NCBI GenBank assembly: GCA_965153455.1
Contig: OZ234494.1
Coordinates: 9,610,001-9,674,000, forward strand
DNA length: 64,000 bases
Source: Sphagnum compactum
Taxonomy: Eukaryota
Direction of reading: 5' to 3'
The first letter of the stretch is position 1, and each line of letters starts with the position of its first letter. The translations under genes and the position numbers were made by a program. Shown in pieces: positions 128 through 24,712 of this stretch. The notes under the pieces are model-generated. The model saw only the letters and a list, made by a program, of their open reading frames with translations. It was not told the origin of the DNA and did not search any database.

Positions 128-212
128 CTGCATGCACCCATACCCTGGTCATGAAAGAATGATTCCCAGAATTGTTTGCAGAATTTGCAACAGTTGGTTG
201 CATGCGTGATGA

Positions 213-1002: not shown

Positions 1003-2619
1003 TCACCAATCCAGCAGGTATGCCATTTACAAAGACTCATGTGGCTCTGAAATCCAATTGAAAGTCTCCTGGGTTTGCAATGCAGTAGCTTCAGACATTA
1101 TGCAGGAGGAAGAGGAGAAGGAGGAGCTCAGAATCACACAGAAACAAAAGAAAAAGAAGAAGAAGAAGAAAGAAATACTGTAGCAAGAATTTCAGGGGAA
1201 GAAAGCTCAGCACACACCTTGCTTGAGGGATTTCTTCTCAAGCTCTCACTATTATCTGCTGCTGCAACACACCACCTTGCTTGAAGGATTTTTCTCAAGT
1301 TTTCATGACTTTGCACTATTTGCTGCTGCTGCTGCTGCACACCATCTTGGTTTTTTGAAGGATTTCTGAAGACCTTTCAATGAGTGCTCCATAGCTTCTA
1401 TTGGGTTTGAGATTTGGAGCAAACCTATGCTTTTCTTGACACATAGGTAGTGAGTGTCCTTGAGAGCGTGTGTCAAACAGTTGAGATATCCCACATATTG
1501 GGTCTGAAATCTAGTGTTTGTGGTGGTTTGCCAACCCCCCACCCCCCAACAGATCAGTAACTAGTAATTCCACAATCCCAAAACTTGCACAAACAAGGCT
1601 GCCACAGCAACAACAAAAGCAGCAAGAATTGGGTGCATTGTGATATCAATTCTTGACTTCTTGAAAAGCTTTGCGGGAACACACTGGCCATCATGGGTAC
1701 CATCCAGCAGCAACAGTAAACACTGCCTACATGCAAGTGAAGCTTTGTTCCAATGCAAAGAACAGGCCTCTATGATCTCCATGGAAGGAGAAATACTAGA
1801 GCTGAATCCTATCTTCAAACTCAGAGCCAACACTCTCACTGTTGTTGTTAGCATCAATGTCCAAAAGATGGTGTAAAGAAACAAGGGCTGCACTGCAAGT
1901 TTCAAGAAGAATGACTGCCCTGCCTGTATTTGTGAAACAGAGCAATCCAAGAATCAGGATCACACTGCATGTCTGATGCACATATCTACATCAAAAAGAA
2001 AAAGAGCAATTCATTAGGTCTATGCTGCTGCAAACCTGGAAACATTGGATTATTTGCCTACCTCCTCATGCTGGACCAAAGGTATACCTTGGGAAAGTTA
2101 GCAAACTCCTGCATGAACATATACTTGGAAGCTTCTTTGTAGCAAAGAAAAAGAGGGGTGTATCCTTCCTACCACTGCATAGTGCTGCTGTGGAAGCACA
2201 GAGCTTGCCCTCTCCATGCACCTTGCAAATGGTACTGCCATAATAGATCACCTGTGGCTGCAACAGGCAGTTTTAAATCACTTTGAGACAGTTTCTGGTT
2301 GCATTCAATATACCCAAAGCATAAACCACCTATTCTGAAAACAAAATGGCAGAAGAAGTATTCTGTTAAACCCAAGAAAAGAACACTGCAATTGTGTGGA
2401 AGAACTCTGCCACCAACCCTACAGAAAGAGTCTGATCTGAAATGATCACTCCAAAGAGAACTGCCATAAGGGGACCTACATTGGCAGATACAACGAAAGC
2501 ATTTTGTACCTGGCTATCTAGATCCTTACAAATGAACTCATGCAATCCTTCAAGACAAATTCCAAGGAATTGGCCGAATTCCAGTCTCCTAAGTCTCACC
2601 AGAGTCTCGAGAAGCTGAG

Positions 2620-2755
2620 ATCTTACCACGGAGATGCGCCGGAGGTTGGTCGATTTCTTCTATGATTTGCAGCTCTTGCAGATTCTTCAATAACCAAGTT
2701 CCCCCGAAGATGGATTAACAAGAATAACCACAACATTTTTCTCCCCACCTCTTGC

Positions 2756-2795
<40 letters not shown>

Positions 2796-2930
2796 GTGGA
2801 CTCTGTTCTCCCTGTGATATATGTTTCACTACCACTCAAAACAGCAATCTTTGCACTTCTTCTTCTCCCCCACCTCTGTCTCACCTCTGTCTCTCTCCTC
2901 CTCTATTTGCCATTCCCGACTCCAACCCTA
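2620..2930 (-). promoter_or_regulatory. Probable first 5' UTR exon / transcription-start region of the PIF-like gene, with a (GA)n microsatellite
   Basis: (CT)n at about 2757-2789 on + (GAGA on the gene strand), purine-rich leader, and a strong donor GTG|GTAAGA at 2626. Confidence 0.5.
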
Positions 2931-3089
2931 AAACAAAACCTCTCTCCCCAATACACCACAAAACCTTAGCGAGAGAGGGATTAGCCATGCAGAATGGATC
3001 AAACAGTGTGTCTTTTTGTATCTAAAAATTATGGCGCACAAATATACATGGCTTGAAGCCATAGACTCTGGATAAATCCAGAGAACACT

Positions 3090-5265
3090 TACCGTGGACC
3101 TGAGCATATGTAGTTCACGAGGCATAGGAAGAGTAGGGTTCTTAGATTGTAAGCTTAAGATCCCTAAATTGGAGTAAGATCCCTCACACTCTTAAAGAGT
3201 ATGGCGCACGAAACCTTGAATTTTCATGGATTTGTGGTGCCATGTGAATTCACTCGGGTTTTTCTCTGAGTTCTTTATGACTCTCAAAATTAATTTCATA
3301 TATGACTCTCAACGTTTATTTTGAAACCAACATTGCTTTTGTCCAGAATATAACTTTGAGAGCTGCAATAACATGTAAAAAGCACTGGAAGATCATGTTC
3401 TAACATATTTGAAGAGCACGTAGAGTTTCAAAGTTCTTGTTTATCCACTCAACATGCCCAATCCATGGTTAAATGGTTTAATTTTAATGGAATTTATTGC
3501 CTATAGAAAAAGGAACACAAAAATAGGGCTTGCTTTTTCGTGATATCAAAAATTTGGACAGAAATTTAGCAAAGTTAGTCGAATTTACTCTAGAAAATAA
3601 AAGAATTCAAAAAGAATTCCAAGTATCTCTTTTGAAAAAATGACAAATTTTTCTGGGAAAAAGTAGATTCTCCCAAACGTAGACCGACGGTTTAGCTGCA
3701 CTTGCTGAAATTCTTGTAGTGGCCGATGTCCAATGCATTTGCGGGCGGCGGATTGTGTTTTGTTCTGGGAATGTACCATTGCATAGCACTTTTCTTTTTT
3801 TGGGGGATGGCGGGGCAAGGGGTGCGGAAGTTGTGTGTTTGGATAGGACCCTTGCTTGCTTGCTCACACCATGAGCAAGCAAGCAGGAAGGCTCTTGCAA
3901 GCAAAGCAAGCAGGAAACATGTTAGCAAAAGGTGATCGACCATTAGGGGACCTACAAAAAGCAACTCAGACACGAAGCATTTGGAACACAACCATCCCTG
4001 CCAGCAAGTGGAACGTTTTTTTGTTTTGGGCGAAAGAAGAGGGCACAAACCAAACTTTATTTAAAAATAAATTTGGGATATTATAACTATAAATCTTATA
4101 ATTATCTCTTATGATTTTGGTCAAAATATTGGTAGGCCATCTTATAAAGATCATTAGACATGCGATTGGTCCAAAAATCCATGTGAACTTGCTTGGATAT
4201 TTCAATGTGAAATGGATTATACATGATAAAAAATGACAAAAATCATGGCAATTTTTTTAAAAATTGTATTGGTAAAATTTCAATACATTTTACATTGAAC
4301 TTTTCATTTGATGGTGGATTTGTTTTTTTGAAATTACTATGATATATTTTTTGAATTGACATTTTTACTCATATATGCATGACAAATTATTGCAATGTAT
4401 GATCATTTAAAAAGTCCACTATATTGAATCCAATTTTTTTTGAGAATTCATCCATATTTTAAAATATGATTCCCATTAAAATCTATTATAACACAAATAA
4501 TTTTAAAATTGACAATGTTAATGTTGAACACGGTTCTACATTTTATATTCACTTATAATCCAAAAAGCTATGATTGTGATAGTCCAAAGAATCCATTGTG
4601 TTTTCACCCATTGTTTATATCATTGATGTGAATCTTTTAAAGTCCGATCAACTGTTGCAATAACAAGCAGCAGTTGTGGTCATTAGTTTTCAGACATGGA
4701 AATTGCTGCAGAATGCTCAAAAGTCAGTTTGGTGTGCCCTGCTCCCGCCCCCTGAGTCACTCGACTCGGTCCTGCTCCTCCTCCATGTTCCCTGTGCAAT
4801 GATCACCCAAAGCCTACTTTTCAGTTTGATTTGCGCACAAGCAGATTGCTCTGCTCCCGCTTGTACAGTTGCAAATAATAACAAATGAATCCATACGTAT
4901 CTAATTCAAATAACAACCAAAGAATGGAAGGAGGTAAGAATCTATGATCGACAATAGACGCTCTTCTTGCATGCAGTATTCCTCCACCAGACTGAAAGAA
5001 AAACTACGATAGAAGCATTCGGATCATGCGTTGAGAAGACTGAATTACACTACAGAAAGTGCACATAACTCTCCTATGCGTGTATAGAAATTGGTTGCCT
5101 GGTGGAGGAGGAAGTCGTTCACGGCCAGCGATCAGCTGGAGGATTGCGACCAGCAAACTGCCAGCCTCGATAACAGTGCGAATGGCTTCGAGGGCCAGCA
5201 TCCACGAGTAGCACATCGCGGCAAACCTTTCTCTCCCGCCAACCTTGACCTGTAGAATGAGCAAT
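3090..5265 (-). repeat. Left arm of a diverged inverted segmental duplication (partner about 20320-23290)
   Basis: Collinear reverse-complement blocks: 3090-3870 with 22505-23290, 3880-4070 with 21115-21325, and 4635-5265 with 20320-21090. Confidence 0.9.
4757..5216 (-). CDS. Putative small peptide gene, copy A (50 aa if spliced 5216-5099 + 4791-4757; 70 aa if unspliced to the stop at 5004)
   Basis: MCYSWMLALEAIRTVIEAGSLLVAILQLIAGRERLPPPPG|NMEEEQDRVE*. Start position, frame, acceptor and stop are conserved with copy B. The GC donor is weak. Confidence 0.5.
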
Positions 5266-6369
5266 TAGCATTCAAACAACTTTCAGCTTCTCTCGTATCA
5301 ATCGCGTTTTGAGAAAACAAGCGCTTCTGTCCCAAGAGAAGAGTGTTTGGGTTTGCTTTATAACATGGCGACTGATACTCTTAACATTCAGGGAGTCACT
5401 GGGTTGGAGAATCCTGTGGTCACAAATACTGACGTGGGACCCAAAGTGTAGCAGTCGCACCTTCCACGCAACGTGATGCCTTCCCTTCTTGTATACGGTC
5501 ATCTTCCAAACCAGATCTAGTTTTTAAATGATGCTAAGGTCGGCTAGTCAACCCTACCAAATTAAGATCAAAGTCTAGATGTGGTGGAAAATTTTCAAAT
5601 TAAAAAAAATTAAATTCTGATGATTAAAAAAATGGGAATATTATGATAAAATGTTCTCTTTTTGTTTTATTGTTTGCAAAATGGCAAGAATTCTCCACAA
5701 AGAAGTAGTCATAATTCCCAAGTGGGAATTCGTGTCATGAGTACCTCTGTTTTGTTTCAAAACATTTTTACTTTGTCTTGAGGTGAATGTTGCACTCTCG
5801 TTGGCTGACCATGTCTTGGACTTGCATGTGATTCAATTCTTTATCAAAATTTCAACTCAATTTCAATCCAAGAAGGAGATTCCCTTCTCATTACCAAAAG
5901 TTAGTGACTGAATCAAGAATTAAGCTTGCAACATGAAGACCTTTTTGAAAATATTGTATGTGCAAGGACATTTTGTTCAAAATTGCATACCTTCCTTTCA
6001 GCATATGAAAATACTATGCTACATACACCACTTTTTGCAAAAACAAAATGCCATGAATATTAAGTGCATCTTTTGATATATGTATTGGTCCCAATAGAAT
6101 CACCTACACCCTCTTACGATGTATAAAACTTGACAAAAATGCCTTTTTTTCCCTATGACATTGTGTCACCCCTTTATGTGTTCAAAATAATTTTTACTAA
6201 TGCTTTTTCAAAATTTCAAAATTTAAGAATAATATTTTAAAAAGACATAGAATCAAAATTTTAACAAACCTCCCAATTTTTGCTCTTTAAGTATTCAATC
6301 AATACAAAAAAAGACAATTGTTCTTGTTCCACCCTAAAGGAACCTCACCCAAAAATATTGTTTGGCACG

Positions 6370-6522
6370 GAAACTATAGTAAAATGAAACTCACCAAATA
6401 TTGTACACATTTTTTAGTGTAGTGGGTTGATGCATATAAGGGGACAGAAACTATAGTAAAATGAAACTCACCAAAATATTGTACACATTTTTTAGTGTAG
6501 TGGGTTGATGCATATAAGGGGA
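6370..6522. repeat. Tandem duplication, two near-identical copies of about 77 bp
   Basis: GAAACTATAGTAAAATGAAACTCACC...GCATATAAGGGGA occurs twice in succession. Confidence 0.9.
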
Positions 6523-7505
6523 TTACATGTCTATCAATTTAAATTCATTTAGAATTGTGCACACATAGCAATAGTGTTGAATGATTATTTGGAAGTTTGT
6601 AACCTCCTTCAATGTACCTGAAATGGGATTTTCATTTGAAACATGTCATATCAATAATTATTAATTTGTCAAATTGTTAATGCACACATCTATAATTTAT
6701 AGGTTTCTGACAAGGGTTCGACAAATGAGTTATAATTTAAATTCTCTTTGATGTCCTTTCTATGCATTGATTTGGTTTTCTAAAATATTAAGTGAAATAG
6801 AAAGTTGATCTATATCTATTTCAGCTATATATATATATATATATATATGATGTTATTTATTACGTTGGGTTGGTAATGAAGATGTCAAATTACATACAAT
6901 GTGTCCATTCACCATGCAAGTGTACTTGCTTTGTAAGATTAATTTTTTTTGATAACAAGACATTATCTTTTAAATGTCAAGAATATGAATGCAAAGTTGA
7001 AACTACTTAAAGATTTTCTTGATATTTTTCACCATTCAAATTAGCATGTCCTTTTTTTTTTAAAAAATGAAAATTATTAGCTTAGGTTTTCTTCTTTTCC
7101 TGAACATCAAAAATTTCATTGTGAAACTGATTAAAAACCTTTGTGAAGTCCTCAAAACCACTATGAAACTAAACCTTATGGATCAAAGTCTTTGGTTTTT
7201 CTGGTCATTTAACTAATTTAATATACCAATTTAATCGAGAAATTTTCAAACATTTAGTTACCATTAGAAACCCAAGCATTTTGAGATTTCGAAAATTATT
7301 TGAATACTTTTCTACACATCCAAGTTGATGATCCAATTTTTATAATGCATCAACATTTACTGATCCCAAAACAATTGATTGGAAATGCCATGTTTTTAGT
7401 AACAATATCATAATGTTTGGTTATGAGTCATAATTTCAATATGTTGAAGAGCATAATTCACATCCTTTTTCATGACTCATATGTTTCAGGTTTTGCTATA
7501 CTAAG

Positions 7506-7575
7506 ACTTGGGACAACAGGACTTTACGAACTAACTTACATACTTGGGACAACAGGACTTTACGAACTAACTTAC
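7506..7575. repeat. Tandem duplication, two copies of about 36 bp
   Basis: ACTTGGGACAACAGGACTTTACGAACTAACTTAC occurs twice. Confidence 0.85.
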
Positions 7576-10500
7576 GTAGTAGTAAGTTAAACTTACTACT
7601 ACAAAGCCTGGCCCCAAGTCCAATGCCTTATCTTTCCACTTTATTTAATGTTTCCCACTAGCCGCCTTAGTGTGCATCCATTTCAACGTTGATTTGCCCG
7701 CAAAATAAGGCCCTATGTCCATTAACAAGCTCTAGGAGAAACCCTTCCACTTGTAAAACAGACTGAACTCAGATTGGAAAAAAAAAAAGTAGCAAAATTT
7801 AGACAGTAATAATATGTTTCAAAACTTTTTTTTTTGTCAAGGTTTATTGTTAAAAACTTTAAGTTGAAAACTAATGTGAAGCTTGCTCCATTGTAAATTA
7901 ATTTGTTTGAGTTAACTACAACTATTCCATTCAAAATAAAATATTTTAAAAGGTCATTTGCATGATTTGTGAATGATCTTGTTTTCATTGTATGCCATTA
8001 TGTGCATGTGCCAATAAGTTTTAAAGGTGTCATTAGTTTAGCATGATAGTGACCTAAACACTAATACAACATGTTATGTTATATGACATACATTGTTTAT
8101 GACATATGGATCATTTGTTTCAATTTTATTTTATTTGGTCCTTTATTGGTAATGCTTTAGATGATTGAACTTATTTTACAATTTAGGGGCTAAGCTTGCA
8201 CGTGATTAGATTTAGTGAACTAATGGCCACACTTATAACATGTGGTAAAAACCAATGTTCAATTCTAATTTTTTTGGGGTTCTAACCATTTAAAAAAAAG
8301 ACAAAAAATCTGATTTTGGTCTGAACTATTTCTAAAAACTAAATGCAAATTATTGTTTGATTCCAAATCCATTTTTCACATTCCTAAACTCCTTATAATT
8401 TTTGGTTTTTCAAAAATACAAAATCCAAAATCCAAAACTATTTTTAATGAAATATATCATGAAATGTCTTTATGTGGTGTAGGTTGAAAATGATGGTAAT
8501 TGTGGCAAGTTATGAAAAATGATTAATATGAATGTTGAAATATTCAATTTGAAAATCCCACTATATCTTGTTTTAGGTTTTGGTCTAAGTTAAAGACTTT
8601 TGAAATTAAGTTATTTTTGCATTTAAAAAATTCCATTGTGCAAAGGACCCATGAATGTAAACTTGTTGATATTGAAAAGCTTTTGGTTAGTTGCAAACTT
8701 TTAATCACTTTCATAAAACACATTATTGAAAGCAATAAATTTATTTTATTTGTAAAAATTGTTTGAATTTTCAGATTTGTTTAAATTTCAAAAGTCATTT
8801 TATCACATTTTAATGGGGTACAATGTACATGATGTATAGGATTATGAACTATCACATAATGCATGTATTTTGGGTGTGGTTTGACCATTTTTCAATTCCA
8901 CTATCCAAAACAATTATATTTTGAAAGTTTGAATGTTTATTCACCAGTATCAATGACACAACTATTGAGACAACTATGCAATACCCATATAGGTAAGGCT
9001 AAGCTAAAAACCAAATCAATCATAAGTTTCAAATACACAAAAAGTGATTTTGGGGGCAAATGACCCTTGTAGTCCTTGGATAATATAGTGATTTTGGTTT
9101 CTACAATTAAGAATGTGCCTTAATGTGGAATTGGCTTTTAATGGTTGTCTTTTGATGCACAATGATTTGAATATCAAGTTATATTTTAAGAAATTCATGA
9201 AATAAACATGCATGCATCTGAAGGTTGGAGTGAAGTTTAGTCAAAAGATTATATAATGGATTCAAGTTGACTATCCTTCCCTTGAGACCCAAAGTGAAGG
9301 ACCTTCTAAATGAACACCACATGGTGTCCCTCCCAAAATTTTAAGAGTTTTTTTTAATATTCAATGATTTGAAAAGTGGAACTAAGGAATTAAATAGACA
9401 AGTGCATGGACAATAAATAAAAATGAAAATTTGTTGCCTAGTTTTAGTAATAGGTGACCTAACAAGTTACTGGACTTAGCAAGTTGTTAAACTTAACAGG
9501 TTATTTAACTTGACCTAAGCTGTGACTTAACCTAACTAATTACAGAACCTAACATGTAACATTATATTGGGTTAATAAAGAACTTGACATGTTGATTAGT
9601 CAATCGGTGAAAATTTGTTCAAAATAAGTTAACAAAACATGTATTTGAAAAAAAAAGGCAAAAAAAAATTGATTGCAAGTTCGCAAACCTAAAATTGCAT
9701 ATATAATTCATTCTAATTGTTGGGTTAAGAGTAGATTGATAAAAGGCTTTTAGATGAATGCCAAAGAAGTATGAATCCACACAACACATTGTTGGTTGTG
9801 GGGTTGTCATCCATGTCTCTGAATAATAAACTATTGAGGCTTGCAAGTATGGTGTAGGATCATATTGGCGGGTTGTAACGAGTGTTGGTAGGTTTCTTGG
9901 ATTTCAATAGGTCTAAGTTCAAGGCATGGGTTAAGTTCTATGGTATCCGGATTGGAGGTTTCAAGTTTTCTTAAAACCATAGTTGGAACTTAACCATGGA
10001 ATCAACCTATTGTCAAAAATTGAATTCGAACTTGAACCGAGGGTGCTGCCCTATGTTTTAAAAAGTTCAGGGTTCGTTAAGTTCTAATTTATTGTATTTT
10101 ATATTAAAACTTGACCTTACATTTTATACATGGTGTATGGCAGTGGTGGAACCGGCAAAAAATTTGTTTGGACAACACTTCTATCCCGTCTACGAGGGCA
10201 AGTCAAAATCGTGCTTGTAGTTGCCTCATCAGGAATTGCATCTTTGTTGCTTTTGGGTGGCAGAACCGCCCATTCAAGATTCAAGATTCCGATTGATCTG
10301 CACGATGAGTCAACTTGCAACATCACACAACAGATGAAAGTGGCTGAGTTGGTGCGTAAAGCTGATCTGATCATTTGGGATGAGGCACCGATGATGCATC
10401 GCCGAGCTTTCGAAGCTGTTGATCGCACCCTGCGTGATTTGATGCAATTGGATGACGCACAGGCAATCAAGAAAATCTTTGGTGGGAAAACCGTGGTCCT

Positions 10501-10779
10501 TGGTGGGGATTTTCGACAGATCTTGCCTGTTGTTCCCAAGGGGGGACGAGAAGACATTGTCAGTGCTTCCTTGCCTCGATCGCATCTTTGGCAGCATGTT
10601 ACAATTCTTCGTCTTCATATCAACATGCGAGTCATGGCAACCAATTCTGAAGAGTAGCAAGAGTTTGCCAAATGGGTGTTAAATGTTGGAGACGGTAATC
10701 TTCCTGCCATTACAGAAGAAGAAGGTGTCGATCCAGATTGGATCAAGATTCCATCCCATATGAGGCTGCCAGCAGAAGA

Positions 10780-13461
10780 CACTAGTAGAAAATGGCCATT
10801 TTGCGACTGGTCCATGTGACTAATTTTTAATTGCAAGCGACATTTGCAACTAAAATTTTAATAGTCGCGTTGGACAAGTCGCATTGACACTAGTTGCAAA
10901 CGATAACGAATTTTGGATGAAAGAAAAGTCAACAAAATACGCTTTCATCCTATGACTAGTCATATACATATTGTTGTTTGCAACTAAGATGCGACTTTTT
11001 TGGTGAACAATGGGAACAAGTTATGTGTTGCCACGTATCCCAACTCTTAATAATTGAAAACATTTTATTATTATTTTGAAATAATCTAAGATGTTTAATT
11101 TTTATGTTTGGATGGTTTAGATTGTGACATGTGGTGCAATAAAAATTTGCCATGTGGCATATTAATTGATATTTTCCAAATTAAATTTAAATCAATATTT
11201 AGGTATGTAGGTTGCATTAAGTACCTACCTATAGACCTACGTACCCATTTAGGCTAAACACCTATTTAGATAGGACCTATTTACCTACCTAGGCCAAATA
11301 CCTACTTAGGTAGGTAAGTAGGTAGAAAAATAGGTAGGCAAGTTAGGGAAGTAGGTAGTTAGGTATAAATACATGAATATTTATATTTTACTTTGGGTCA
11401 AGTCATATTTAATGACTCATCCCATATGCCCATCTATTTTTATATGTAAATGTAAGACAAAATACCTTGTTTATATACTTTTCAAGATGGGAATGAAAGC
11501 CAAAACACATGGGATAAACTTTTTAGTTGCAAGTCGTTTACGACTAAAAATGTTCAGTTGCAAACGACTTGCAACTAAAAAGTTTATCCCATATGTTTTG
11601 GTTATCGTTCCCATCTTGAAAAGTATATAATTAAGTAAATAAGTGACACCTAATTAGTTAACTAATTAACTAATATAATTATTAATTATTTAACGAATGA
11701 AATATAGAAAAATAAATTAATAAACTTGCTAATTAATTAATTAACAACTAAACTAGAAACTAACTAATTATTTATAGTAATAATAATCAATATCTTCTTA
11801 TTATTGAATTTATTATATTATTATTAAATATTAAATAATTTATTAGTTAGATAACTATAATAATCTATCAACCAATTTAATTAACTAGTAATTGGCTAAT
11901 ATTGAAATATTTAACTAATTCTTACTAAGTAATAAATTATTATTTCGTAACCAAATAAATTAATATAATAACTGAAATATTCAGTATTTAATTATTAATA
12001 ACTATTAATTATAAATATTGACTATTAGGTTTTTTATATCTAATAATATAATTAAAACTTAGCCTAGGCTAACTATTTTATTATAATTACTCCCATTATT
12101 ATTTTCATTTATATAGTTAATCGTAAATATATAAGTAAATATTTAATAGTAAAAATATCATTAATTCAATTATTATTGTAGCTAGTTGGTAGCCAAGGTT
12201 AACTATTTTATTATTATTATTCATATTATTAATTCACTCATTAATTGATTTATGAAATATTAAAATAAATATTATATATTTTAAATAATTATATTTTTCC
12301 TTCGAAAATAATTTTTGCATTTGTATAATAATTAATTAGATTTCCACTCTAACTAATACAGTAATTATTATAAAAGATAAAATAATAGAACTGAAAATTA
12401 GAAATATACATTAGTAAATGATTATAATCATTGACTTATTAATAATTAATAAATATCAACTATAAATTTTAAATACAAAAAATTAAAACTATATATTAAT
12501 ATTTCTTAATAATTATTTTATTAATCTAATAAATATTTCATAATTGATTACTTATAATAGTAAGAACAATAATGTAATTTGTCACTAGCCTAGGTTAGCT
12601 ATTTTCTTCTTATTATTATTATTATATGTTACTTGTTAGACTATTATGATTTACTATAATTAAGTTTTCATTTTTTTAAGAAATAAAAATTAATTCGTAA
12701 TAAGTACATTAGTCATTTGAAAAGAATTTAATAATAATTTAATAATATATTAAATTTTTTATAATTACTTCAATAATTATAGAATTATTTTTCTTATCAT
12801 TCTAATATCATCATCATTATGATCATTATGTAACAAGATATTACTGTTTTTAAATTTTAATTAAAGATAATATTTAAATTTAGTTTTTATTACATGTAAT
12901 TAATATAATTATATAATATAATAATAATACAAATAATAATAAATGTCATTTTTAATCATTTTAAGAAATATAATAAAATGGTTTGGATAAACTTATAATA
13001 TGGGCACAATATATTTAATAAATATCTTATGTATAATTTTGATATACTCAAAATATATACCATTTAATGTAACCATAATATCAAGGCCATTTATGATAAT
13101 AATAATATTTGAATACACATCTAATATGGTTGTTCATATACATTCAAATTATACATTCATAAATCCTAATACACCAAACTATATTTTTTAAAATTCACAA
13201 AATATACCTTTATATACTTATAGGGTTACAACTAAGTTGGTCACATTTACAACTAATGGGACATAAATTGTTCTTCTTGGATGAAAACTTAACTAAATGT
13301 TGTTCACATGGAAGGATGAACACCAAACTAGTTGCACTGTAGTTGCAAATATGACCAACACAAGAAATAGTTGCAAAAATGTCCAAATGTAGTTGTAAAT
13401 AACTGATAGTCGCATGTAGTCGCAAAGAGATTGGTTACATTTTAGCCAATTTCTACTAGTG
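10780..13461. mobile_element. Non-autonomous CACTA (En/Spm) element, 2682 bp
   Basis: TIRs CACTAGTAGAAAATGGC...GCCAATTTCTACTAGTG with a 3-bp TSD AGA (10777-10779 and 13462-13464). Removing it restores the helicase frame (...LPAEDCSLRGLIRTIYPD...). Subterminal TTGC(A/G)ACT repeats at both ends; extremely AT-rich non-coding interior. Confidence 0.95.
11471..11630. repeat. Near-perfect 160-bp palindrome inside the CACTA element
   Basis: Arms of about 75 bp (TTATATACTTTTCAAGATGGGAA...GTTGCAAGTCGTTT / AAACGACTTGCAAC...TTCCCATCTTGAAAAGTATATAA) around a loop of about 10 nt. Confidence 0.9.
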
Positions 13462-14910
13462 AGATTGCAGCTTAAGAGGATTAATCCGAACCATCTATCC
13501 GGATCACCGGTGCCACTCTGAAGATGCCATGTATCTTATGCAACGCAGTGTTCTAGCCCCCAAAAATACTGACGTTGATGAAATCAACAATGCAATTTTA
13601 GAATCGCTATCTGAAGAATCGCACACGTACCTGAGCGTAAATTCTTTGACTCCAACAAAAGAAGATGCAAGTGTTGCTGCAGGAGTTTCAATGGATTCAT
13701 TGTATCCGGTGGAATTTTTAAACACTTTGCAATTTAGCGGTATCGCAAATCATGAGCTGGAACTCAAAGTGGGTGTGCCAATCCTTTTGTTGCGTAATCT
13801 CAATCAATCAATATGATTGTGCAATGGTACGAGGTTGATTGTCAAAAGATTAGGTCAGCGTGTCATTGAAGCGGAAATCATTACAGGAAACAATGTCGAC
13901 AAACGTGTGTTCATACCTCGCATCATCATGTCCCCCTCTGGGACTGATTGGCCATTTGTTTTGCGTCGCCGTCAATTTCCAGTTCGAGTGGCGTTTGCGA
14001 TCACAATCAACAAGAGTCAAGGTTAGACATTCAACAACATTGGGGTATGTTTGCCGTCTCCGGTCTATTCCCATGGTCAGCTGTATGTTGCTATTTCACA
14101 GGTCACAAGTAGTGCAAACATCAAGATTTTCAACTGCCAGGGTCCCGATAGATACATGCGAAATGTCGTATATAAAGAGGTTTTGGAACTATAGTTTGTA
14201 GTTGTAATTTTGTAATATGTACCGTCAAATGCACACAAACCTGTGCATTAGGCATGGGGTTCAGACTAATTTATATATATATGTGTGCAAACGACCCAGC
14301 CTTGCGGTTTGATGTCTAAGAAACACATTGCACTAGAGCAGCAAAAAGGCCAGGATTGTGTTCTGCAATTGCACCATGGTTTTTGTACAATTGTTTTCTT
14401 CCCCTTACAATTTGTACACCCTATTTAGGTTTTTATCACAATTGACGATGTCTGTTGTACCAGTTGGTAAAAGCTAAAAACCTTTTTTTTTGGTCTTTTT
14501 TTTTGGGGCGAAATTTTTGTGAAAAAAAATGGCAGTGTGAATCCTACAAAGTCACCATATTTTGATGAAAAAGGAAACAAGAATTTTGGTATGTAGAAAA
14601 TAACTTCATTGCCAACCGATACCACAGAACCTAATTTTTTTCTAGTTGATCAACAATTTGTTTGTTCTGATTTATCATGTGACGAGTATCCTCATATCAC
14701 AATTTGCATGTAACGCAATCAGAATTTTAAACCTTGTTTTTCACACAATCTAACAACACTAAGGTCTCGGAAGATTATGTCATTTTCTTGACCACATTTA
14801 CATGACATAATCTTCCAATGATGAAGTGACCAAAATCTCTCTTGAACATGAATGTTTAAAAGAATTGTTGAATCTGCCACTCTAGACCTTAATGTCAGGA
14901 AATGGTCTCA

Positions 14911-14994
14911 CCCTTGCCCATATTATGTTGGGTGGGTCACCAACCCCAGCCTAATGGGCTCACCTAGTGCATCACCCAACATAATGGGCAGGGG
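14911..14994. repeat. Short GC-rich inverted repeat (possible MITE relic)
   Basis: CCCTTGCCCATATTATGTTGGGTG ... CACCCAACATAATGGGCAGGGG. Confidence 0.6.
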
Positions 14995-17900
14995 CTTGAA
15001 TAGTCCTTAGTATATGATCTAAACATTTTCCATAGTTACATAGTCTAAACATTCGAGGAAAATGTGTAGGTAAAATGGGCTTTTTGTAAGATGCATTTTC
15101 ATAAGTGTGAACTTTCCCCTTTAACATTAATAATATATTGGGCATATTTATAAAATTTCCCGGTCAATTATTAATAGTTAATCATGTAGCAAAATCATGA
15201 AGAAAGAAAATCTAACCAGGGCTTTGCTATGTTGCGCATTACCAGTCACAATGTTGTCATAATTGTAGGTAAATTTCATTTGAGATTGCTAAAAAATTTA
15301 TTTTGAAATTATGTAATATAATGATTAATTGATAGTGAATAAACTTTGATTTTAACTTATGCAAATTTTCAAAGTCCTTTTTGCTATGCCTAAACATTAA
15401 CCCTCAAACAATCGCCCATATATTCTATTAATTGCACATAAGCAAAAATTAGCACTTGTTCAACCAAGACATTAATGAATAATTTAATAAGTTAAATTAT
15501 CAATTAAAAAAATTATGACTGAAACTAAATCTGATCTAGATATTTCCATTAAAGTTCATGGCATGCATTTCAAAAGAAACTAACTCATTGTCATCAATTT
15601 CACAACATTCAAAGGAAAAAAATGAAATGAGATTTAATTTTGTTTTACTAGAATTTCATGTCATACACTTCGTATCTTGAATTTGAGATTTTTGGTAAAT
15701 ATGTTCTAGAAAATTCATTTGTATTATTTAAAAGCTTTACACAAAACAAATTTTCTTGCAAGAAAATTCAAATATTCAAAATTGTACCCTTATTTTTTTA
15801 AGACCAACAAAATAATATTTGGGCAAATGATGGAAATGAATTTGAAGGACAAAAGGAGATGACACCAGTGGAGGTAATTATGCTAGCATCTAGCAAATTT
15901 ACCACCTCAATTAAATGTAAATATCCCAATTTAAAACAAATCTTGTTTTGAATCTAGCAAAATATCATCCCCCCATCAATCACTCCCTCTATGAAATTGT
16001 AACACATCAGGGTTACCAACTAAAGCTTTTGGTCTTTTCATGCTCCCATTTTTGCCTTTTACTACCATTGTGGTTCACATTGTCCCATTACCTTCAATGG
16101 TAATCAAATTAATACCTGAATCATGGGAGACCTTTGCATCCCCCAACCTTGGACAACTAGAAATATCGAATAGTTGAGTCTAATGAACTAATTTTCATTA
16201 CTATGAAGGTAACAATATAGGGTATTCCAAGCAATATGAGAATCTTCAAATCCTTGATCGACCTTTTTGGCTTGGTGGTAGTTTGATTCAATATTTCCCA
16301 CAAGTTGTAAAATGCTAGTTTTGGCTAGGATAATCCAAGTTTGCAATGTAACTCCTCTATAATGATGTTAAAATTGTCCAGGTATTGTATGTGGTGGACA
16401 TCAATTGTGGGGACCATCGACGTTTTTTTTTTTCCCGGTTTGTGATAGGCATCTTTGATTGGTCCATGACCAAAAAACATTTATTCAAGCTTTGGATGGT
16501 CCCAAAATAGACATATTGTAATCTCCTCCTTTGGGCTGCTTATATTGATTTAAAAAATAAGCACCCCTTGGCTCAGCCTCAGATGGGCATTTACTTTCGA
16601 AACCCCCCACTCCTCCAACATTGCTTTACACTAAATATCATGGACAACCTTCAAGGTGGTAAGTTTTTGTATATTCTGCCCAAAGAGTTCACACGGGCAA
16701 GCTGTTTAATTACACATGAGGTGCCCAGAATTTTTAAATTTTTTCCAAGAACTATGGCTTTGTAAATTGGGGGGCTTCCTTGGCTTGACAACTATCACCC
16801 GCACTGGTACTTGTCACCTTCTTGAGTAAGCCCATAAGTTGCCAAATTAAACCCAAGAAATGTTACATTTGTACTCAGAAAATGGGTGGGTTGATGTAAT
16901 CAAATCATGGTAGATGTTTTAACTATGCTTGGCTATGTCATATGTTTCAAATAAAAAGGTGTTGTATATAGTGGTTAAAGATCATCTCTTTGAATGTAAA
17001 GCCTTGGGTTTAAATCATTTCCCTAATATCTGTCTTTTCTTTAGGACTAACTAGTGTGCCCTATGTCAAGAGTGAACTTGCTACCCAAACAATTTCTCCT
17101 TTCACGTTAAATTCACTAGAATTTCTTGTGACAAAAACTACTTCAAAATTCAATATCTTCCACAACTTCCGTCTAAAGATTATGAAATCACTTCGACAAA
17201 ATCTGACCAATTGAGGGCTTTTCAACAATATCAAGAATATCTTTGGAATTCCTTAATAAAAATCAGTTTTAATTTTGTTGAATTTTCATTGAAAAAATTA
17301 CTCAATATTCAATATCTCTTCCAATGTAGGTCTAAATACTACCAAACCATCTTAATGCACCCCTACTCATGAAGGGCTTTCCAATAGTACCAAGAGCATG
17401 ACACAAATGGTGGAGGGGGGTGTGTTTTGGGAGATCTCAAACGTGACAAACGAAACAAACTATCTTCTTTTTATACAGGGGTGAAAACACATTATAATAT
17501 TTAATTAAGACACTTAAGACTCGTTTGTGAAAGTTCATTTCCAATGTATTTGAAATTTTATTTAAAATATAAAAATGTAAACATTTTGAAATTAAACATT
17601 TTCTTTTTCATTTCCAATTTCAAATCATTTGAAACCAAGATGCTATAAGACATTTTTAATTTACTTATGATTTCATTTCATTTCATTAACCAAGATGCTA
17701 TAAGGCATTTAAAAATCATTTGAAATCATGATGCTATTGGAACTTGTTTTAAGGAATTCAACAAACGAATGCCATGCACAATCAAGTAGGACAAAAAATT
17801 TAGTCAATAGACACTCTATGGGTTTGAGCAAATTATCATTATAAAATTTCATGCCTCTGAAAAAACGTGGAAACACCATTTGCTTTCAATCATTGTCTTT

Positions 17901-20319
17901 TTTATAGACAATGCGTAAGTTAGAACTTATTTCAAATGAATTTTGCAAACAAGTGTGTAGATCAAGGTGGGAATCAAAATTCATACCTTGAGGCTTTCAA
18001 GATAGACAATGGATTCAACCAAATCATATTATGACCGAATTGTCAGCAAATCCCAAAAAAGTGAAGATATCTCTTGCACTAAGCATCATGTGGGGGGAGC
18101 TTTTAGTAGTTGTCTTTTCCTAGACAACATAGACAATGACTTGGAAATTTGAACTTACTTAAGAAAAAAATAGCAGATTAACATGCACATCAAGGTAGGA
18201 ATGATATGTGTATGTTGACAATATCAAAAGAGATGGTTGATTCAAACCGATTATCATGGTCATGAAGATGTTAGTGAATACTACAAGTGAAAGCATCTTT
18301 TATAACTAAGATGATGAGGTGTAAATGAGTGTTCTGTGGTTCTTTTCTAAAAAAGAGAACCTTTGGTTTCAATTTGGTTTTAAAAAAATAAATAAATTGG
18401 AGCTTCTTCAGGTGTGAGTTTGAACTTGGTTTTTCCCATTTAAAACCTTGCAGTTTTGATTTTCACACAATTTTTTCAAATTCAAGAACCTCTGGGTCTA
18501 ATTCAAAAACAAGTTTGGTTCCATATAGATGTTACACATTTCTCTATGCTAGATATTGCACAGATAGAAAAGTTTTATATCAAACAAAAATCAGGGTTTA
18601 TGTAGATATAGAGTTGAACAACAAATTGAAAATTAATATTCAATTTTAAAGTTCAGTCTACTTGTCAAATTTTCCAAAAAAAAAAAAACTTGTCTACTTA
18701 AAGAATCTGTCCCTCTTTATAAGAGCTTTTCATACTTTTGAATTTGAGTCCAGATCTAACAAAAGACTATTTTCAATGTCCAGTTCTTGTGCCGGTCCCC
18801 ACAAAATGACATGAGCTCAACTCCAGGTCACAAAAACTTGACCCTCAACCCCCCATTCTAACACTGAAATCTGAATACCATCACAACACTGGTCTGAACT
18901 TGGAGGACATATTTCCTTTTGAGGCAACGACTTCTGAAGTTGGAACTTATTTTGAAGAAATTCAAGAAACAAGCGTGCATGTCAAGGTAGAACAGGCCTA
19001 CCTTCTTTCATCCTGCCACAGTGAACCAGCACTCACCAGTGCCCCATGAAGGATGAATGGTAAAGGGATCAGGAAACAGTTTTCTGTTGGGTTCCAGTTC
19101 CCTAGCTAACCATCGTGGTTAGCTCAATTGCTTTTTTCTTTTCTACCTACCTACTAACAACCCACAAGCAGGTTGTTAGTAGGTAGGTAATAAAAAGGGC
19201 CCCTCACCTGTGTATAAACCATCTACTTACCTAGTAGTTACCTGTTTTCCTACCTATCTGCTTATATATGAGAACTATTTCCTACAGAATTGGTTACCAA
19301 GGTGAAACCAAATATTTACTCAGTTGAGGTTCATCCACAATTGATTATTAACAGGCGAGGATGCTTGCATCCTTTGTACTAAGGAAAATGGAGAATTTAT
19401 AGGACGTCAGGTTAGCTCAAACTAGATGTCATTTTCTCTCCATGTCAAAAATCGATTGTCGATAATAGGTCGGTCGTATCTTTTTATGTCAAAAATTGAT
19501 CGTTTGCAATAGGTTGATCGTGGGTGATGGGAGGTGTGTCTTAAAAGGGTGGAAGTCAGGAAATAACTAAGCTTCCAGTGATCACTTGTCTTAATATGAA
19601 AGAAGGTTGCATCCATTGCAATGTGATTGAAATTTTTTGACAATTAAAATCAGTGTTGACTCTTCCTAATGTGTCACATTGTTTTCGGGAACTCTTGTTT
19701 TGGGAGTGAGGGAGTGTAGGGTTCTTGGAAAGGTAGAACTGAGGAGTTTTAGCAATCAGAATTATCATCAGAATATTTTATCACAAAGAGGGATTCTATT
19801 CATTGGAACATGGCCCCCATGTACCTTTTGATTCCTGAGTAAAAGGACTTTCTTCTCTCTTCTCTTAGAGCTAGGCTAAAGAAGAACTCTTTTCTTTTTA
19901 GAAAACTTAAATAAGAGTTAAATTGCTCTTGCCACAATCACAAAAATATATGATTTGAAATAGGCACTATGTCCCCACAAGTCTGCCCCTGCCAATAACC
20001 TAGGCCAAAAATGATAAAAAACCACATGTCAAGACTATCGGCATAGAAATTCTTGCCACCCAATGAGGCAAGTCAGCATACAGTGTACACCCAACCAACC
20101 CTAGTTTTTCTTTCCTTTTGGGGATCGAGGGTGGGGGTGTCTTGCATTTTTTGGGGAATTTTTTTTGTTATTCCCAATGTGTTCCCCCAACGTGTGCCCA
20201 ATAGCAACTCACATTGTTGCATAAGTTCTACTCTTGTAATCAGCCCAAAGCGGGAGACTACAATACCAGGATATATCTTGCAACAGCGGCGCTTTTCTTC
20301 ATTGAACGCATCAGTCGCT

Positions 20320-23290
20320 CCTTCTACACAAGCTTGGTGGGAGAAAGAGCTTTGCACCGATGGATTTGCACACGGCCCTCGAACTCATTGGCAATATTAT
20401 TCAGGTTTTGGGTTTGCTGCTCAAACTCTACGACCAGGTCCGCCGCGAACTAGGTCATCCTCCCGCCGGCACTCAATTTCTCTACATGCACAGGAGAATT
20501 ATGTGCACTTTCTGTAGTGCAACTCAGTCTTTTCAACACATGATCCGATTGCTTATATCCTAGTTTTTCTTTCTGTCCATGTTCCTTTTTTCTTTAAAGT
20601 GTTTTTGCTCTGTCCTTTTTTTTTGTTGTTGTTTCCTTCTCTTCTTGTTCACTTTGCGTTGATAGTACGGCACAACCAAGAATTCTGAGGAGAAATCCTT
20701 CCGTCTGGTGGAGGATTACTGCAACAAGAGCGTCTATTTCGATCATAGATTCTTACTCGTTTCCATTTTTTGGTTGTTATTTGAATAGATCCGTATGGAT
20801 TCAAAATTATTTGTTCTTATTTGCAGCTGTATAAAGCGGGAGCAGAGCAATCTGCTTCTGCGACAATCAAACTGAAAAGTTGGCTTTGGGTGATCATTCC
20901 ATAGGAAATATGGAGGAGGAGGAGGGCCGGGTCACGTGAGACTGGAGGGGGCGGGAGCGGGGCACACCAAACTGACTGCGGAGCATTCTGCAGCAATTTC
21001 CATGTCCAGAAACTGACGGACAGAAGTGCTGCTTGTTTCTTTTGATCTCTGCTGTGATTGAGATTTTGCAACAGTTGATGGGACTTTCTAGAATCCGGAT
21101 GTTGCACTACCTAGTTATTTTTTTAAGAGTAAAGTTTGGTGGGTGCCCTCTCCTTTCGCCCAAAACAAAAAAAGTGTTGCACTTGCTGGCAGGGCTGGTT
21201 GTGTTCGAAATACTTCGTGTCTGAGATGTCTTGTGGCTTTCATGTTGCTCTTCGTAGGTCCCCTGATGGTCGATCACCTTTTGCTAACATGTTTCCTGCT
21301 TGCTTTGCTTGCAAGAGCTTTCCTCGCTCTTTCCTTAGAGCATGCCCACCCAAGCACTGGAAGAGCATGTTTTCGATGTAGCATACTAAACACTTGTTGG
21401 TTTGGTTCAAAAAAACGGTTTGGCTTTACGAGCATCATCAAGCCACGATAGTCAAAGATGAGGGAGTTGATTAGCATCAACATGAAAAGATCTTGAATTC
21501 CGCAGATTCTGAAGCGGAAGGGAACTAAATTTGGGAAAAGCAAACTTGATCTGTGTCCAGAAGAGTACACGTACATTGCTAAGTAATTGGAGTAATCTTC
21601 AAAGGAATTGCAGTACCCTGATCTGTTCTAAGTTCACGGCCGAACAAGAGGGTTTTTGTTTCTCTTACATTTGTTAAGTACAAAATTTCCATCCCTCTTC
21701 CATTTAGCAGAAATAGTTTGGACATTCCTTCAGGGTGCCGAGGCAACGTCATATAAGTTCTGAGTGCCTTTCTTTGTTTTCTATCAGTACGCCAGTGAAC
21801 ATGTGACCCAAAAGGAGTTCTGGACAGTTTGATTTTTGAAGAGGTGATCAGTGACGGTTTTTAAGGTTGAAGGAAGTGGACATCAACTTGTTGTGTGTTG
21901 GTTGGTAAACTTGGAAGATCCTTCTGTTGTTGTTGATTGCAAGTGAAGGAGGCTGGCATTTGGTGGCAATGGGGGATTTTTCAGCTTGTAGACAGCTTCT
22001 ATCATCTATGGTGGCGTACTGAAGTATACAGATCTGTGTTTTTGGACTGTTTTGTTGTGTGTCGTTTATACTGTCTGGTGCCGCAGATTTCAAGATCATA
22101 ATGTTTGAGCTTATCTGGTTCTGCAACTACGGGTTCTACTTTTATCTTGTTGTGTTATGTGGGGCTGGAATTGCTGGATTTTCTGGAGTCGATGGGCATG
22201 GAGTAGGGGATGCTGAAGGAGGATTTAAGCGGTGCAAGCACGTGCGGCTGCAGCATTGCAGGAGAGTTATTAGAGCTTCTGGTTCTCTCTTTCTATGTAG
22301 GTTTGATGGCTTGAGAATTGTAGGAGTGTATGGGTGTCTAGGTTGATGAGCAAGAATTAGATCATCTGCTGCGCTGTTTTCGCAAGACAACCTATGTACC
22401 TGAAGGAAAATTGAAGTATGGTGATGCTCAGGAGAGAATAAACACCTGCACGTCAGCCAGAGAAAGGACAAACTATAACCGCGAAGCTCATCAGGCACTG
22501 GTTCTTTGTTCAGGGTGTAAGCGAGCAAGCAGGGCCCCATCACAACACACAACTCACCCCCGCCCTCCGGCCCACCGCCACACACCCCCCCCCCCCCCCG
22601 CCGAAAAACAAGTAGGGTACTATGGAATGGTACGGAGCACTGTGAGAATCTCAGCACGTGCAGCTAAATCCTTGGAAGTTGGTCTACGTTTGGGAGCAGC
22701 GACGTTTTACCCACCAAATTTTGTCTTTTTTTCAGAAAATGTACTTGGAATTTGTTTGAATTTTTTTGTTTTCTAGTGTAAATTCGACTAACTTTCTTAA
22801 ATTTCTGGCCAAATTTTTGATATCACGAAAAAGAAAGTCCTACTTTTTAGTTTTTTTTCCTACAGGAAATAAATTCCATTAAAATTACACCATTGGCATG
22901 TTGAGTGGATAAACAATAACTTTGAAACCCTACAACCCTCTCATAAAGGGTGCTCTTCAAATATGTTAGGACATGATCTTCCAGTGCTTTACATGTTATT
23001 GCAGCTCTCAAAGTTATGTTCTGGACAAAAGCAATGTTGTTGGTTTCAAAATAAATGTTCAGAGTCATATTTGAAATTAATTTTGAGGGTCATAAAGCAC
23101 TCAGAGAAAAATTCCTAGGGAATTCACATGGCACCTTGTATCCATGAAAATTCAAGGTTTCATGCACTTTATTCTTTATTGAGTGGGAGGGATCTTACAG
23201 CAATTTAAGGATCTTAGGCTTACAATCTAAGAACCCCTAGCTACTCTTCCTATGCCTTGTGAAATTGCATATGCTCAGGTTCATGATAAT
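20320..23290 (+). repeat. Right arm of the inverted segmental duplication (partner about 3090-5265)
   Basis: Reverse-complement collinearity with the left arm; carries about 1.2 kb (21325-22505) that is absent from the left arm. Confidence 0.9.
20360..20939 (+). CDS. Putative small peptide gene, copy B (47 aa if spliced 20360-20468 + 20905-20939; 67 aa if unspliced to 20563)
   Basis: MDLHTALELIGNIIQVLGLLLKLYDQVRRELGHPPAG|NMEEEEGRVT*. Paralogue of copy A with the same phase-1 junction and the same 35-nt second exon. Confidence 0.5.
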
Positions 23291-24712
23291 TGTTATGGTG
23301 TGCTTTACAATGGGTAAGGACCATGTGTGGGGAAATATTCCTGAAATGTGAGGCCATACTTGGCTACTACATCATCCTTGATCCCTTATTTAGGGAATGC
23401 CCCTACCTTGGCACATTACCTTACACAAATTGTTGTGGGCACTCATCCATGGACTTAGGGCCTTCATTTTTTTTCCCCTAGGGCCTTACCCTACACACTG
23501 TTATGGGCACTATTTGATGGCCTCCCAACTTGCACACAACTTATATACATGGAAGTTGAACCATGGTGAAACAATATGGGATAAGAATGAGGTAGTGTTG
23601 GAAACACTTAGAGAACACATTGGGAACGAACATGAAACACAAAATCACCCCTTCCCAAAGAAAAAAACGAAGGCCCCCCCTCCCCCCTGCCCCTTCTAAT
23701 TGGTTCCATAGAATTTTTATATCCAAAATAGTTTGTCGCCATTTTCAACGTGGACCAATACCCCCATTGTAAGTTAGGGGCATTTATTATGTTGTGTATT
23801 TGAGAGGGTCTGAAATTTGAATAGGTACTCATGCTCGGGAAGGAGGGTATTAGTGTAGGCAAAAGTGTATAGTGTTGTGGAATGCAACCATTGTGTGTCT
23901 ACATGATGCCCATCACTGGTGAATTGTGTTTAATTTTAATACTTGGTTTAATGGTTATATGTTCAAGGTTCATGAACTTCTGTGGCATTGTTGTATATAT
24001 CATGGTAGTCGTTCTCCGTGTTGAAACAAATGAGTAACAGCCATATTTGTTTGTGTGAAAATTCACACAAATGCAGAAACAAAGGCTAATAAAACAGGAA
24101 TATTCTGTCATTTGTTTCCTTTTTTTGGGAAAAAATGTAGTCACAAAAAATAATTTAATGAATTTTTTTCACCGCAGATCTACTTGGATTTGAGGGAGGG
24201 GGTTTGTACCGTGACGTGCACGCTTGTTTCTTGAAATCCGGAGTTGGGCCCTCCTCTCATCAATATTTTATTGTGGGTTTCATCAATACCAACTAAAGTA
24301 AGTTGTCAATTGGTATTTCTATTACCTACCTACCACCAGCCCTCAAGTTGGTACCATGCTAAAAATGCTAAAACTTTTAAATTATTTGTAAGTATCACAG
24401 ATCTCTCATTCTTGAAGTAAAAATCTTACATTTTTTGAGCTTCATTCATTTGAGCATTGATAAAACCCCTCACTTTTACATCTAAAAATAAGATAATTTC
24501 AAAAACTTTAATAATTTCAGAAAATAAGTTTTCAAATAACCACGAGCTTAATTATCAAAGGAAAGCCAAGCTACTTCTCATTGCCGCAAACGGAAATCAC
24601 TCTAAACCCTAGAATGCAACTGAAACAACAGGTAAAGGTGGGCAATGGGGGAAAAGAAAAACAGAAAAAAAACGAGCACGGAAACAAAGGTAGCAAATGT
24701 AAACCACCTCGT

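Follow-up and report, generated by a model that had tools for sequence, protein, structure and literature searches.

Two short open reading frames (ORFs) that lie at the inner ends of an inverted duplication in the peat moss Sphagnum compactum raise a simple question: did selection on a small protein drive them apart, or does their divergence reflect duplicated DNA that has been partly homogenised? The locus lies in a 64,000-nucleotide stretch of contig OZ234494.1 (positions 9,610,001 to 9,674,000), hereafter the window, to which all coordinates below refer. The original prediction, made from the letters of the window, had proposed an unannotated, fast-evolving family of amphipathic micropeptides encoded in two exons. 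The observation behind it is largely real, its gene model is wrong and its interpretation is partly supported. We found that the segment encoding the first predicted helix carries an excess of amino-acid-changing over silent change and that this excess is specific to the ORF frame. The explanation that we favour, holding it with about as much confidence as doubt, is a Sphagnum-restricted pair of small genes for a helix-turn-helix protein, in which helix 1 of copy B would have diverged adaptively and gene-conversion mosaics would be superimposed. The elements on which the argument depends are the following.

3084..5335, minus strand: arm A of the inverted segmental duplication, 82-85% identical to arm B, with the small gene at its inner end.
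20270..23294, plus strand: arm B of the inverted segmental duplication, in surroundings rich in transposons.
5004..5216, minus strand: ORF A, 70 codons plus TAG, the conserved (A) type.
20360..20563, plus strand: ORF B, 67 codons plus TAG, the fast-evolving (B) type, whose orthologues in metagenome contigs L001 and L003 keep the frame.
5124..5216, minus strand: helix-1 coding segment of ORF A, at which A-type copies differ in only 3-5 of 93 nt.
20360..20443, plus strand: helix-1 coding segment of ORF B, hypervariable, with 33/84 mismatches to A and an AlphaFold2 helix at residues 3-30.
4792..5007, minus strand: putative GT..AG intron of copy A, whose position follows from homology to annotated relatives; the best-conserved block of the locus.
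4683..4791, minus strand: 35 codons plus TAA that splicing would add to ORF A from exon 2, in a frame that varies between copies.
20564..20904, plus strand: block of copy B homologous to the A intron, with the GT donor missing.

The predicted duplication was borne out. BLASTN matched 5125..3084 (minus) to 20442..23294 (plus) in five pieces at 82-95% identity, and a global alignment carried the homology to about 5335/20270, some 110 nt upstream of the start codons at 5216 (minus) and 20360 (plus), which align as had been claimed. The two arms account for 14 of the 16 inverted pairs detected, and the small frame occurs in the window in two copies only. Relative to each other, arm A carries an insertion of about 600 bases (4067-4660) and arm B one of about 1.3 kb (21328-22645). 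The arms are best explained by an old segmental duplication in inverted orientation, now about 16% diverged, that copied a small gene apparently restricted to Sphagnum.

A 21-base string common to both arms retrieved five metagenome contigs (L001-L005), 88-92% identical to the matching arm; three are of A type (L002, L004 and L005, with L002 and L004 encoding the same protein) and two of B type (L001 and L003). All seven DNA copies (two arms and five contigs; six distinct sequences) keep the frame open between the aligned ATG and TAG, and none of them is free of stops in any of the remaining five frames. The intact frame expected in relatives was thus found at all five metagenome loci, free of frameshifts and stops.

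Divergence is distributed very unevenly along the aligned copies, as the following values for the A-B comparison and for the comparison of B with its orthologue L003 indicate.

Leader: A-B 19/80 = 23.8%; B-L003 9.8%.
Helix segment: A-B 33/84 = 39.3%; B-L003 23.8% (20/84).
Second half of the frame: A-B 21/117 = 17.9%; B-L003 6.8%.
Intron-like block: A-B 18/206 = 8.7%; B-L003 2.9% (10/341).
Stretch after the acceptor: A-B 24/152 = 15.8%; B-L003 7.9%.

Between helix segments A (5216-5124) and B (20360-20443), the 33 mismatches in 84 aligned bases are accompanied by nine gap columns, which form a 6-nt and a 3-nt indel, both in frame as the original prediction had it. Twenty of the 28 aligned codons change the amino acid and one differs only synonymously, close to the earlier hand count of 31 differences in 93 nt, 20 of 31 codons and 3 synonymous changes. 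The 13 differences reported for the next 105 nt are exact when counted from the donor then proposed (5098-4994), but that stretch continues the frame, and directly after the helix segment the count is 18/105. Against L003, copy B differs at 28/201 positions over the whole ORF and at 20/84 in the helix segment, versus 10/341 in the adjacent block (p=2e-6); in a sliding window against the orthologue, identity is 77-79% at 20350-20470 and 94-99% in all windows of 20470-21038.

The kind of change in helix 1 is more telling than its amount. The proportions of amino-acid-changing and silent sites that differ (pN and pS) were computed on the 25 gap-free helix codons and compared by a Fisher test. They gave 0.469 and 0.088 for A-B, a ratio of 5.3 (p=0.004), and 0.420 and 0.026 for A-L003, a ratio of 16 (p=0.0002); pN/pS was 3.2 for B-L001 (p=0.013) and 3.4 for L001-L003 (p=0.03). 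The differences fall on codon positions 1/2/3 as 16/12/5 for A-B and 14/11/2 for A-L003, and the probability of so few position-3 changes is 0.017 and 0.002, respectively. Position 3 (5/28) diverges about as much as the background of the arms, and positions 1 and 2 together (28/56) exceed the leader (19/80, p=0.002). An older stretch that escaped conversion would have diverged at all positions and a constrained coding sequence mostly at position 3; neither fits the observed pattern. Although the region was chosen for its divergence, this choice does not affect the codon-position test. Helix pN/pS is 0.5-1.4 in the two remaining sense frames, and the helix transition/transversion ratios bear no special mutational signature. 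The signal is mimicked by one frame only, the antisense frame that shares wobble positions with the ORF, which has stops in 3/5 comparisons; purifying selection on this antisense frame was considered and rejected, as its position 2 is often changed and the total divergence is above background.

The acceleration is not a property of the whole family. The A-type ORF has diverged 2-3 times less than its leader and intron (p=0.004, 0.06 and 0.006), for instance at 8/210 positions vs 31/288 in the flanks (p=0.004) and at 9/210 vs 29/251 (p=0.006). Since A-type helix segments differ at only 3-5 of 93 positions and the ORF stays below its flanks, the fast change lies in the B lineage and on the branch between A and B. 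Hence, of the proposed fast-evolving pair, the frame-specific excess of amino-acid-changing substitutions holds, but it is confined to that lineage and that branch, and the A type is conserved.

The gene model had to be redrawn. The exon ends proposed at 5099/20468 are followed by GC rather than GT, and both frames continue to the aligned TAG. The acceptor (AG 4793-4792 in A, 20903-20904 in B) and the 35-nt reading with the GNMEEE motif do exist, but the relatives use another exon-2 frame; the two-exon model, with its GC donors and GNMEEE tail, found no support. Annotated relatives read through the proposed donor, splice at a GT overlapping the TAG to the AG at 4793-4792 and continue in a frame other than GNMEEE. 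Copy A has the same GT (5007-5006, overlapping TAG) and AG, and splicing would give 105 aa, as in the relatives. Beyond the acceptor, the tails of the family proteins P0009, P0011, P0020 and P0022 (our labels, as for all P numbers below) differ in frame or length, and a 1-nt indel separates A from B at the acceptor itself. These varying tails, together with the acceptor indel, imply that the conserved unit is the first-exon frame of 67-70 codons.

The term "unannotated" was wrong for the A type, which is modelled as an unnamed or hypothetical protein of 99-124 aa in Sphagnum fallax, S. jensenii, S. troendelagicum and S. tenellum. ORF A is 94%, 90%, 90% and 76% identical to the four similar-length candidates found (4/4) and matches over 100% of its length, at 94% identity, a 105-aa S. 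jensenii cluster representative, in whose cluster stands KAH8970046.1 of S. fallax (BDL97_02G066500, 105 aa). Three A-type entries bear the automatic UniRef name "Secreted protein." ORF B aligns with A end to end at 49-51% identity; the B-type proteins P0013-P0015 and P0024 are all gene calls on metagenome contigs, and most family members outside the reference annotations are likewise automatic calls of this kind. A profile search of 1.84 billion representatives returned eight matches, comprising five small relatives and three long tandem-repeat proteins, the latter set aside as repeat artefacts after inspection of their sequences. Members of the family were found only among Sphagnum and moss-metagenome sequences, and every named one is from Sphagnum. 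None of 189 candidates of 124-2000 aa, and none of the 1.84 billion representatives, is a longer or fused protein containing the frame. No function is on record for any member of this Sphagnum family of 99-124 aa, no paper was found that mentions its gene identifiers, and a search on Sphagnum small secreted peptides, at the level of titles and listings, returned nothing on it.

Expression was approached indirectly. As described in the part of PMC9946827 that deals with gene models, the Joint Genome Institute (JGI) annotation of Sphagnum retained models on homology or expressed sequence tag coverage and removed poorly supported ones without full transcriptome support. This filtering lends indirect support to A-type expression in a relative and does not bear on the copy in the window. 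Public RNA runs contain 16-22% of the sampled words of 100-5400, a figure that we counted as evidence for no part of the locus.

Regarding the product, AlphaFold2 (17 sequences) predicted helices at residues 3-30 and 38-66 with an invariant PPxG turn between them, at a mean predicted local distance difference test score (pLDDT) of 70.5 and a predicted template modelling score (pTM) of 0.36. Positions 11, 15, 18, 22, 25 and 29, spaced 4-3-4-3-4, are hydrophobic in all sequences covering them, and the hydrophobic moment is 0.45-0.57 in most members. B-type helices contain K, D, E and Q within the hydrophobic stretch, and such a helix would probably be amphipathic rather than a signal peptide. 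Searches of Pfam with hmmscan (E up to 10) recovered no family for ORF A, P0009 or P0012 and only DUF6944 (E=0.22) for ORF B; no significant match emerged from a sequence search of PDB chains, from Foldseek against the PDB or from the ESM Atlas. A homodimer prediction of ORF A scored 0.02 ("no answer") and was used neither way.

Altogether, we propose that the first exon would encode a frame of 67-70 codons folding into a predicted helix, a Pro-rich turn (PPxG) and a second helix. Copy A would represent the conserved form, which in the models of relatives is spliced from the GT overlapping TAG to the AG at 4793-4792, and copy B a paralogue in surroundings rich in transposons. In the B lineage, helix 1 would since the duplication have changed several times faster than the neighbouring DNA, mainly at codon positions 1 and 2, a concentration that suggests positive or diversifying selection on a peptide and hence a translated frame. 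Helix 2 and the turn could form a constant scaffold, with helix 1 packed against it through a hydrophobic stripe; the binding target, be it a protein partner or a membrane surface, could be set by the variable face of helix 1. Copy A may thus have retained the original specificity and copy B gained a new one. An extended version of this proposal, in which A is a conserved hairpin microprotein and the exposed helix-1 face of B is kept diverse by selection, fed by patchwise conversion from A, for use in recognition or against the microbes that abound in the peat-moss habitat, is rather improbable; such a constant/variable module would be a small-scale analogue of the conversion-driven diversity at recognition loci.

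Several results weigh against adaptive divergence of a translated copy B. No B-type protein stands in the reference annotations of the collections searched, and the window copy of B has a C where six other copies have the G of the GT donor. The comparison B-L003 taken alone is not significant (pN/pS 2.3, p=0.12; codon positions 8/7/5, p=0.30), and the statistics, with p values from 0.0002 to 0.03, come mostly from one long branch (A/B), in comparisons that share branches and have small counts. Omega among A-type copies is 0.31, 0.80 and 1.13 on 7-9 changes, so that purifying selection at the protein level is not evident. The probability that the frame is open by chance is about 0.05 by our arithmetic, given that a stop arises from about 3.4% of single changes and that the six sequences require a minimum of 85 changes. 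The ORF indels of 6 and 3 nt are in frame, yet 5 of the 11 flanking A-B indels likewise have lengths divisible by three, and the in-frame indels therefore add little. The second half of the frame is conserved no better than the adjoining intron-like block, which means that nucleotide-level constraint or conversion may explain its conservation. The hydrophobic pattern, claimed in the original prediction to be largely kept, is retained in B at 14 of 18 positions, not beyond chance (p=0.075, or 188 of 2516 stop-free simulations matched for counts per codon position); the same simulation gave p=0.21 for L003 and p=0.20 for L001. The helical moment of variability reached p=0.07, and the recognition score of the ESM language model was 1397, under the 2300 reached by most real families.

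Beside adaptive divergence, gene conversion has to be considered in its own right. L001 has B-type flanks and an A-type stretch within helix 1, with nine sites of the pattern A=L001, B=L003, and of the 20 differences between B and L003, 11 show the A state in L003 (our tally). B-type proteins resemble mosaics of A-like, B-like and private stretches, best explained by patches of A that B-type copies would have received by conversion; an unseen third copy may also have served as donor. From this follows an unlikely alternative, a conversion mosaic without adaptive change, in which helix 1 and the leader, outside the homogenised tract, would simply display an older divergence and patchy A-to-B conversion would inflate the differences among B-type copies, the frame still possibly coding. 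Besides the A-type states in L001 and L003, it draws on the drop of A-B divergence from 23.8% in the leader to 8.7% after the frame, and on the ratio of B-L003 to A-B divergence, which is similar in all segments (0.33-0.61 by our calculation). The edge of a conversion tract, which the original prediction itself had named as a possible undoing, is thereby partly realised: one B-type orthologue has an A-type patch, and a block in which A and B are alike follows the helix. It is nevertheless insufficient because the third codon positions stay near background divergence, with changes at only 5/28 (A-B) and 2/28 (A-L003) of them vs 28/56 and 25/56 at positions 1 and 2, the former also being in excess of the leader. 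Moreover, B, L003 and L001 each carry non-A states, denser than in the flanks (e.g., B-only sites at 9/84 bases vs 5/241), and conversion from A alone therefore fails to explain the excess.

It also seems unlikely, to a similar degree, that no protein is made at all and that the arms are instead promoter-proximal sequence or part of a long non-coding RNA, such as a host transcript with a functional "intron" block, the frame being open by chance and the models in relatives being by-products. Such a reading would account for the intron-like block being the best-conserved part, for the missing recognition by family, fold or language model and for the varying exon-2 frame, and it is compatible with the chance of openness, the A-type omega values not below 1 and the predominance of automatic metagenome calls outside the reference annotations. 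On the other hand, a three-base periodicity of change tied to the frame has no non-coding explanation, and the A-type ORF is conserved 2-3 times better than leader and intron. Nor did the arms behave as a structured RNA: the Rfam search of 1-26000 (E up to 1) left them without a match, its sole hit being a weak histone stem-loop outside the arms, and in the RNAalifold analysis of the intron-like block the covariation term was unfavourable, with 2 of 99 pairs compensated.

A further alternative involves the gene that follows copy A on the same strand.

141..1026, minus strand: 5' coding exons (1026-898 and 656-141) of a basic helix-loop-helix (bHLH) gene resembling phytochrome-interacting factors (PIF), 93% identical to P0001 and truncated by the window edge.

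The frame at 213-710 (minus) is 93% identical to P0001, a protein of 584 aa that bears the JGI name phytochrome-interacting factor 3, and the PIF-like ATG (1026) lies 4.2 kb downstream of copy A. Arabidopsis PIF3 is controlled through its 5' untranslated region (UTR). Copy A could be an upstream ORF (uORF) in a long, intron-containing 5' leader that tunes translation of the PIF-like gene, and copy B a stranded, drifting duplicate of that leader; the shared strand, the transposon remnants without PIF-like coding sequence downstream of arm B, the stop position constant in all copies and the lower variability of the peptide in its second half, which is roughly as long as the ribosome exit tunnel, than in its first would all suit it. 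We regard this as about the least probable reading considered, since four Sphagnum annotations model the frame as a separate gene and no longer protein contains it, a GA-repeat stretch at about 2790-2750, between copy A and the PIF-like ATG, resembles a separate PIF promoter or 5' UTR start, the PIF-like gene of the window has two premature TGA codons and ORF A is intact, and drift in B could neither exceed the neutral rate nor give a codon periodicity.

The uORF idea invites comparison with conserved peptide uORFs (CPuORFs), with which the Sphagnum frame shares its small size, its location 5' of a same-strand bHLH gene, a fixed stop and a less variable second half. CPuORFs are defined by a peptide conserved across distantly related plants. 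The Sphagnum peptide is found in Sphagnum only and is modelled as a separate gene in relatives, and a literature search on CPuORFs, bHLH factors and moss, at the level of titles and listings, gave nothing relevant. The proximity of a bHLH gene also recalls the helix-loop-helix microProteins that titrate bHLH factors; the frame has no PF00010 match (E up to 10), and its AlphaFold2 helix-loop-helix shape is generic. WXG100/ESAT-6-like hairpins are of similar length and adopt the predicted helix-turn-helix, with template modelling (TM) scores of 0.64-0.80 in the best Foldseek rows; this is a likeness of shape only, as the best E value is 1.9 and the probability at most 0.41, with neither a WXG motif nor a sequence relation. 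The N-terminal amphipathic helix had been likened in the original prediction, as a superficial resemblance only, to those of HeLo, HeLo-like and MLKL domains and to phenol-soluble modulins. Phenol-soluble modulins are single amphipathic helices of roughly 20-45 aa. The Sphagnum frame, with 67-70 aa and two predicted helices, has no Pfam match to any of these and also contains a second helix and a Pro-rich turn. Among the Sphagnum hypothetical proteins of 99-124 aa, ORF A fits by similarity over its full length, whereas ORF B shares only about 50% identity with A and has no GT donor.

A precedent comes from another moss. Fesenko et al. (2019) report small ORFs of Physcomitrella, located in long non-coding RNAs (lncRNA-sORFs) or within coding sequences (CDS-sORFs), as under strong positive selection and document translation by mass spectrometry (PMC6724668). 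The Sphagnum frame resembles these as a moss frame of fewer than 100 codons with an elevated ratio of amino-acid-changing to silent substitution (Ka/Ks); it differs in that no sequence relation to them emerged and in that Sphagnum has conserved and hypervariable paralogues with conversion mosaics, seen at the level of DNA. What is already known comprises the annotated A type and fast-evolving short moss frames as a described class (PMC6724668). Our study adds a corrected gene model, with the first-exon frame rather than the annotated tail of variable frame as the conserved unit, and a B type absent from the reference annotations searched. If translated, the pair would be a natural example of a lineage-restricted microprotein after duplication, one copy constant and its twin with a fast-changing helix, with patches traded between them, and it would provide, in a keystone peatland genus, a compact two-helix protein of 67-70 aa with which to seek the binding targets of fast-evolving plant microproteins. 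If untranslated, it would be an ordinary diverging duplicate and a caution about dN/dS on small samples.

Some observations concern the arms and their blocks. The intron-like block, 4792-5003 (minus)/20564-20904 (plus), is the best-conserved part in paralogue and orthologue comparisons alike; an 11-bp hairpin within it, at alignment columns 280-305, is retained by all copies, and window copy A is without about 130 nt that are present in every other copy reaching this block. Two adjoining patches of 41 and 52 nt, at 3328-3419 (minus)/22950-23039 (plus), are 98% alike between the arms vs about 83% overall. The locus is also structurally variable among related mosses, as seen when L001, L003 and L005 are set against the window. 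In L005, 5814 is joined to 23566, and about 180 nt of its own sequence replace a 17.7-kb block comprising transposon-rich DNA and arm B. In L003, the B-type arm adjoins homologues of 14053-14268 and 40815-41180. In L001, it is joined at 22192 to a 98.5% copy of 2231-1964, possibly as an assembly chimera.

Two transposon-based origins for the arms were considered. The idea that they are terminal inverted repeats of one large transposon was rejected because L005 links sequence from the interval between the arms (5814) to sequence beyond arm B (23566). Arm B may have been captured by a Helitron, an idea for which the arm junctions do not display the expected ends. A frame typical of this class is present nearby.

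10115-10657, plus strand: frame for a PIF1-like helicase of the kind typical of Helitrons (Pfam E=9e-73), within the AT-rich 15-kb interval that separates the arms.

Beside this Helitron-type PIF1 helicase frame, the window contains a plant-specific PRT_C domain and a TPR gene, which together with its composition identify it as plant nuclear DNA. Its peat-moss nature is also indicated by the named relatives of the small frame, all from Sphagnum, and by the moss-metagenome labels on several public runs that contain the stretch. The PIF-like gene has in-frame TGA codons at two places where P0001 has Arg, one near 215-213 and the other at codon 8, shortly behind the start at 1026, where another ATG immediately follows; in this genome the gene is possibly a pseudogene or a null allele. 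Downstream of arm B, at 26294-28997 (minus), lie frames that, as judged by eye, resemble remnants of hAT-type transposases. Between the arms, a near-perfect palindrome at 11466-11635 consists of two 83-nt arms, 89% complementary, around a 4-nt spacer.

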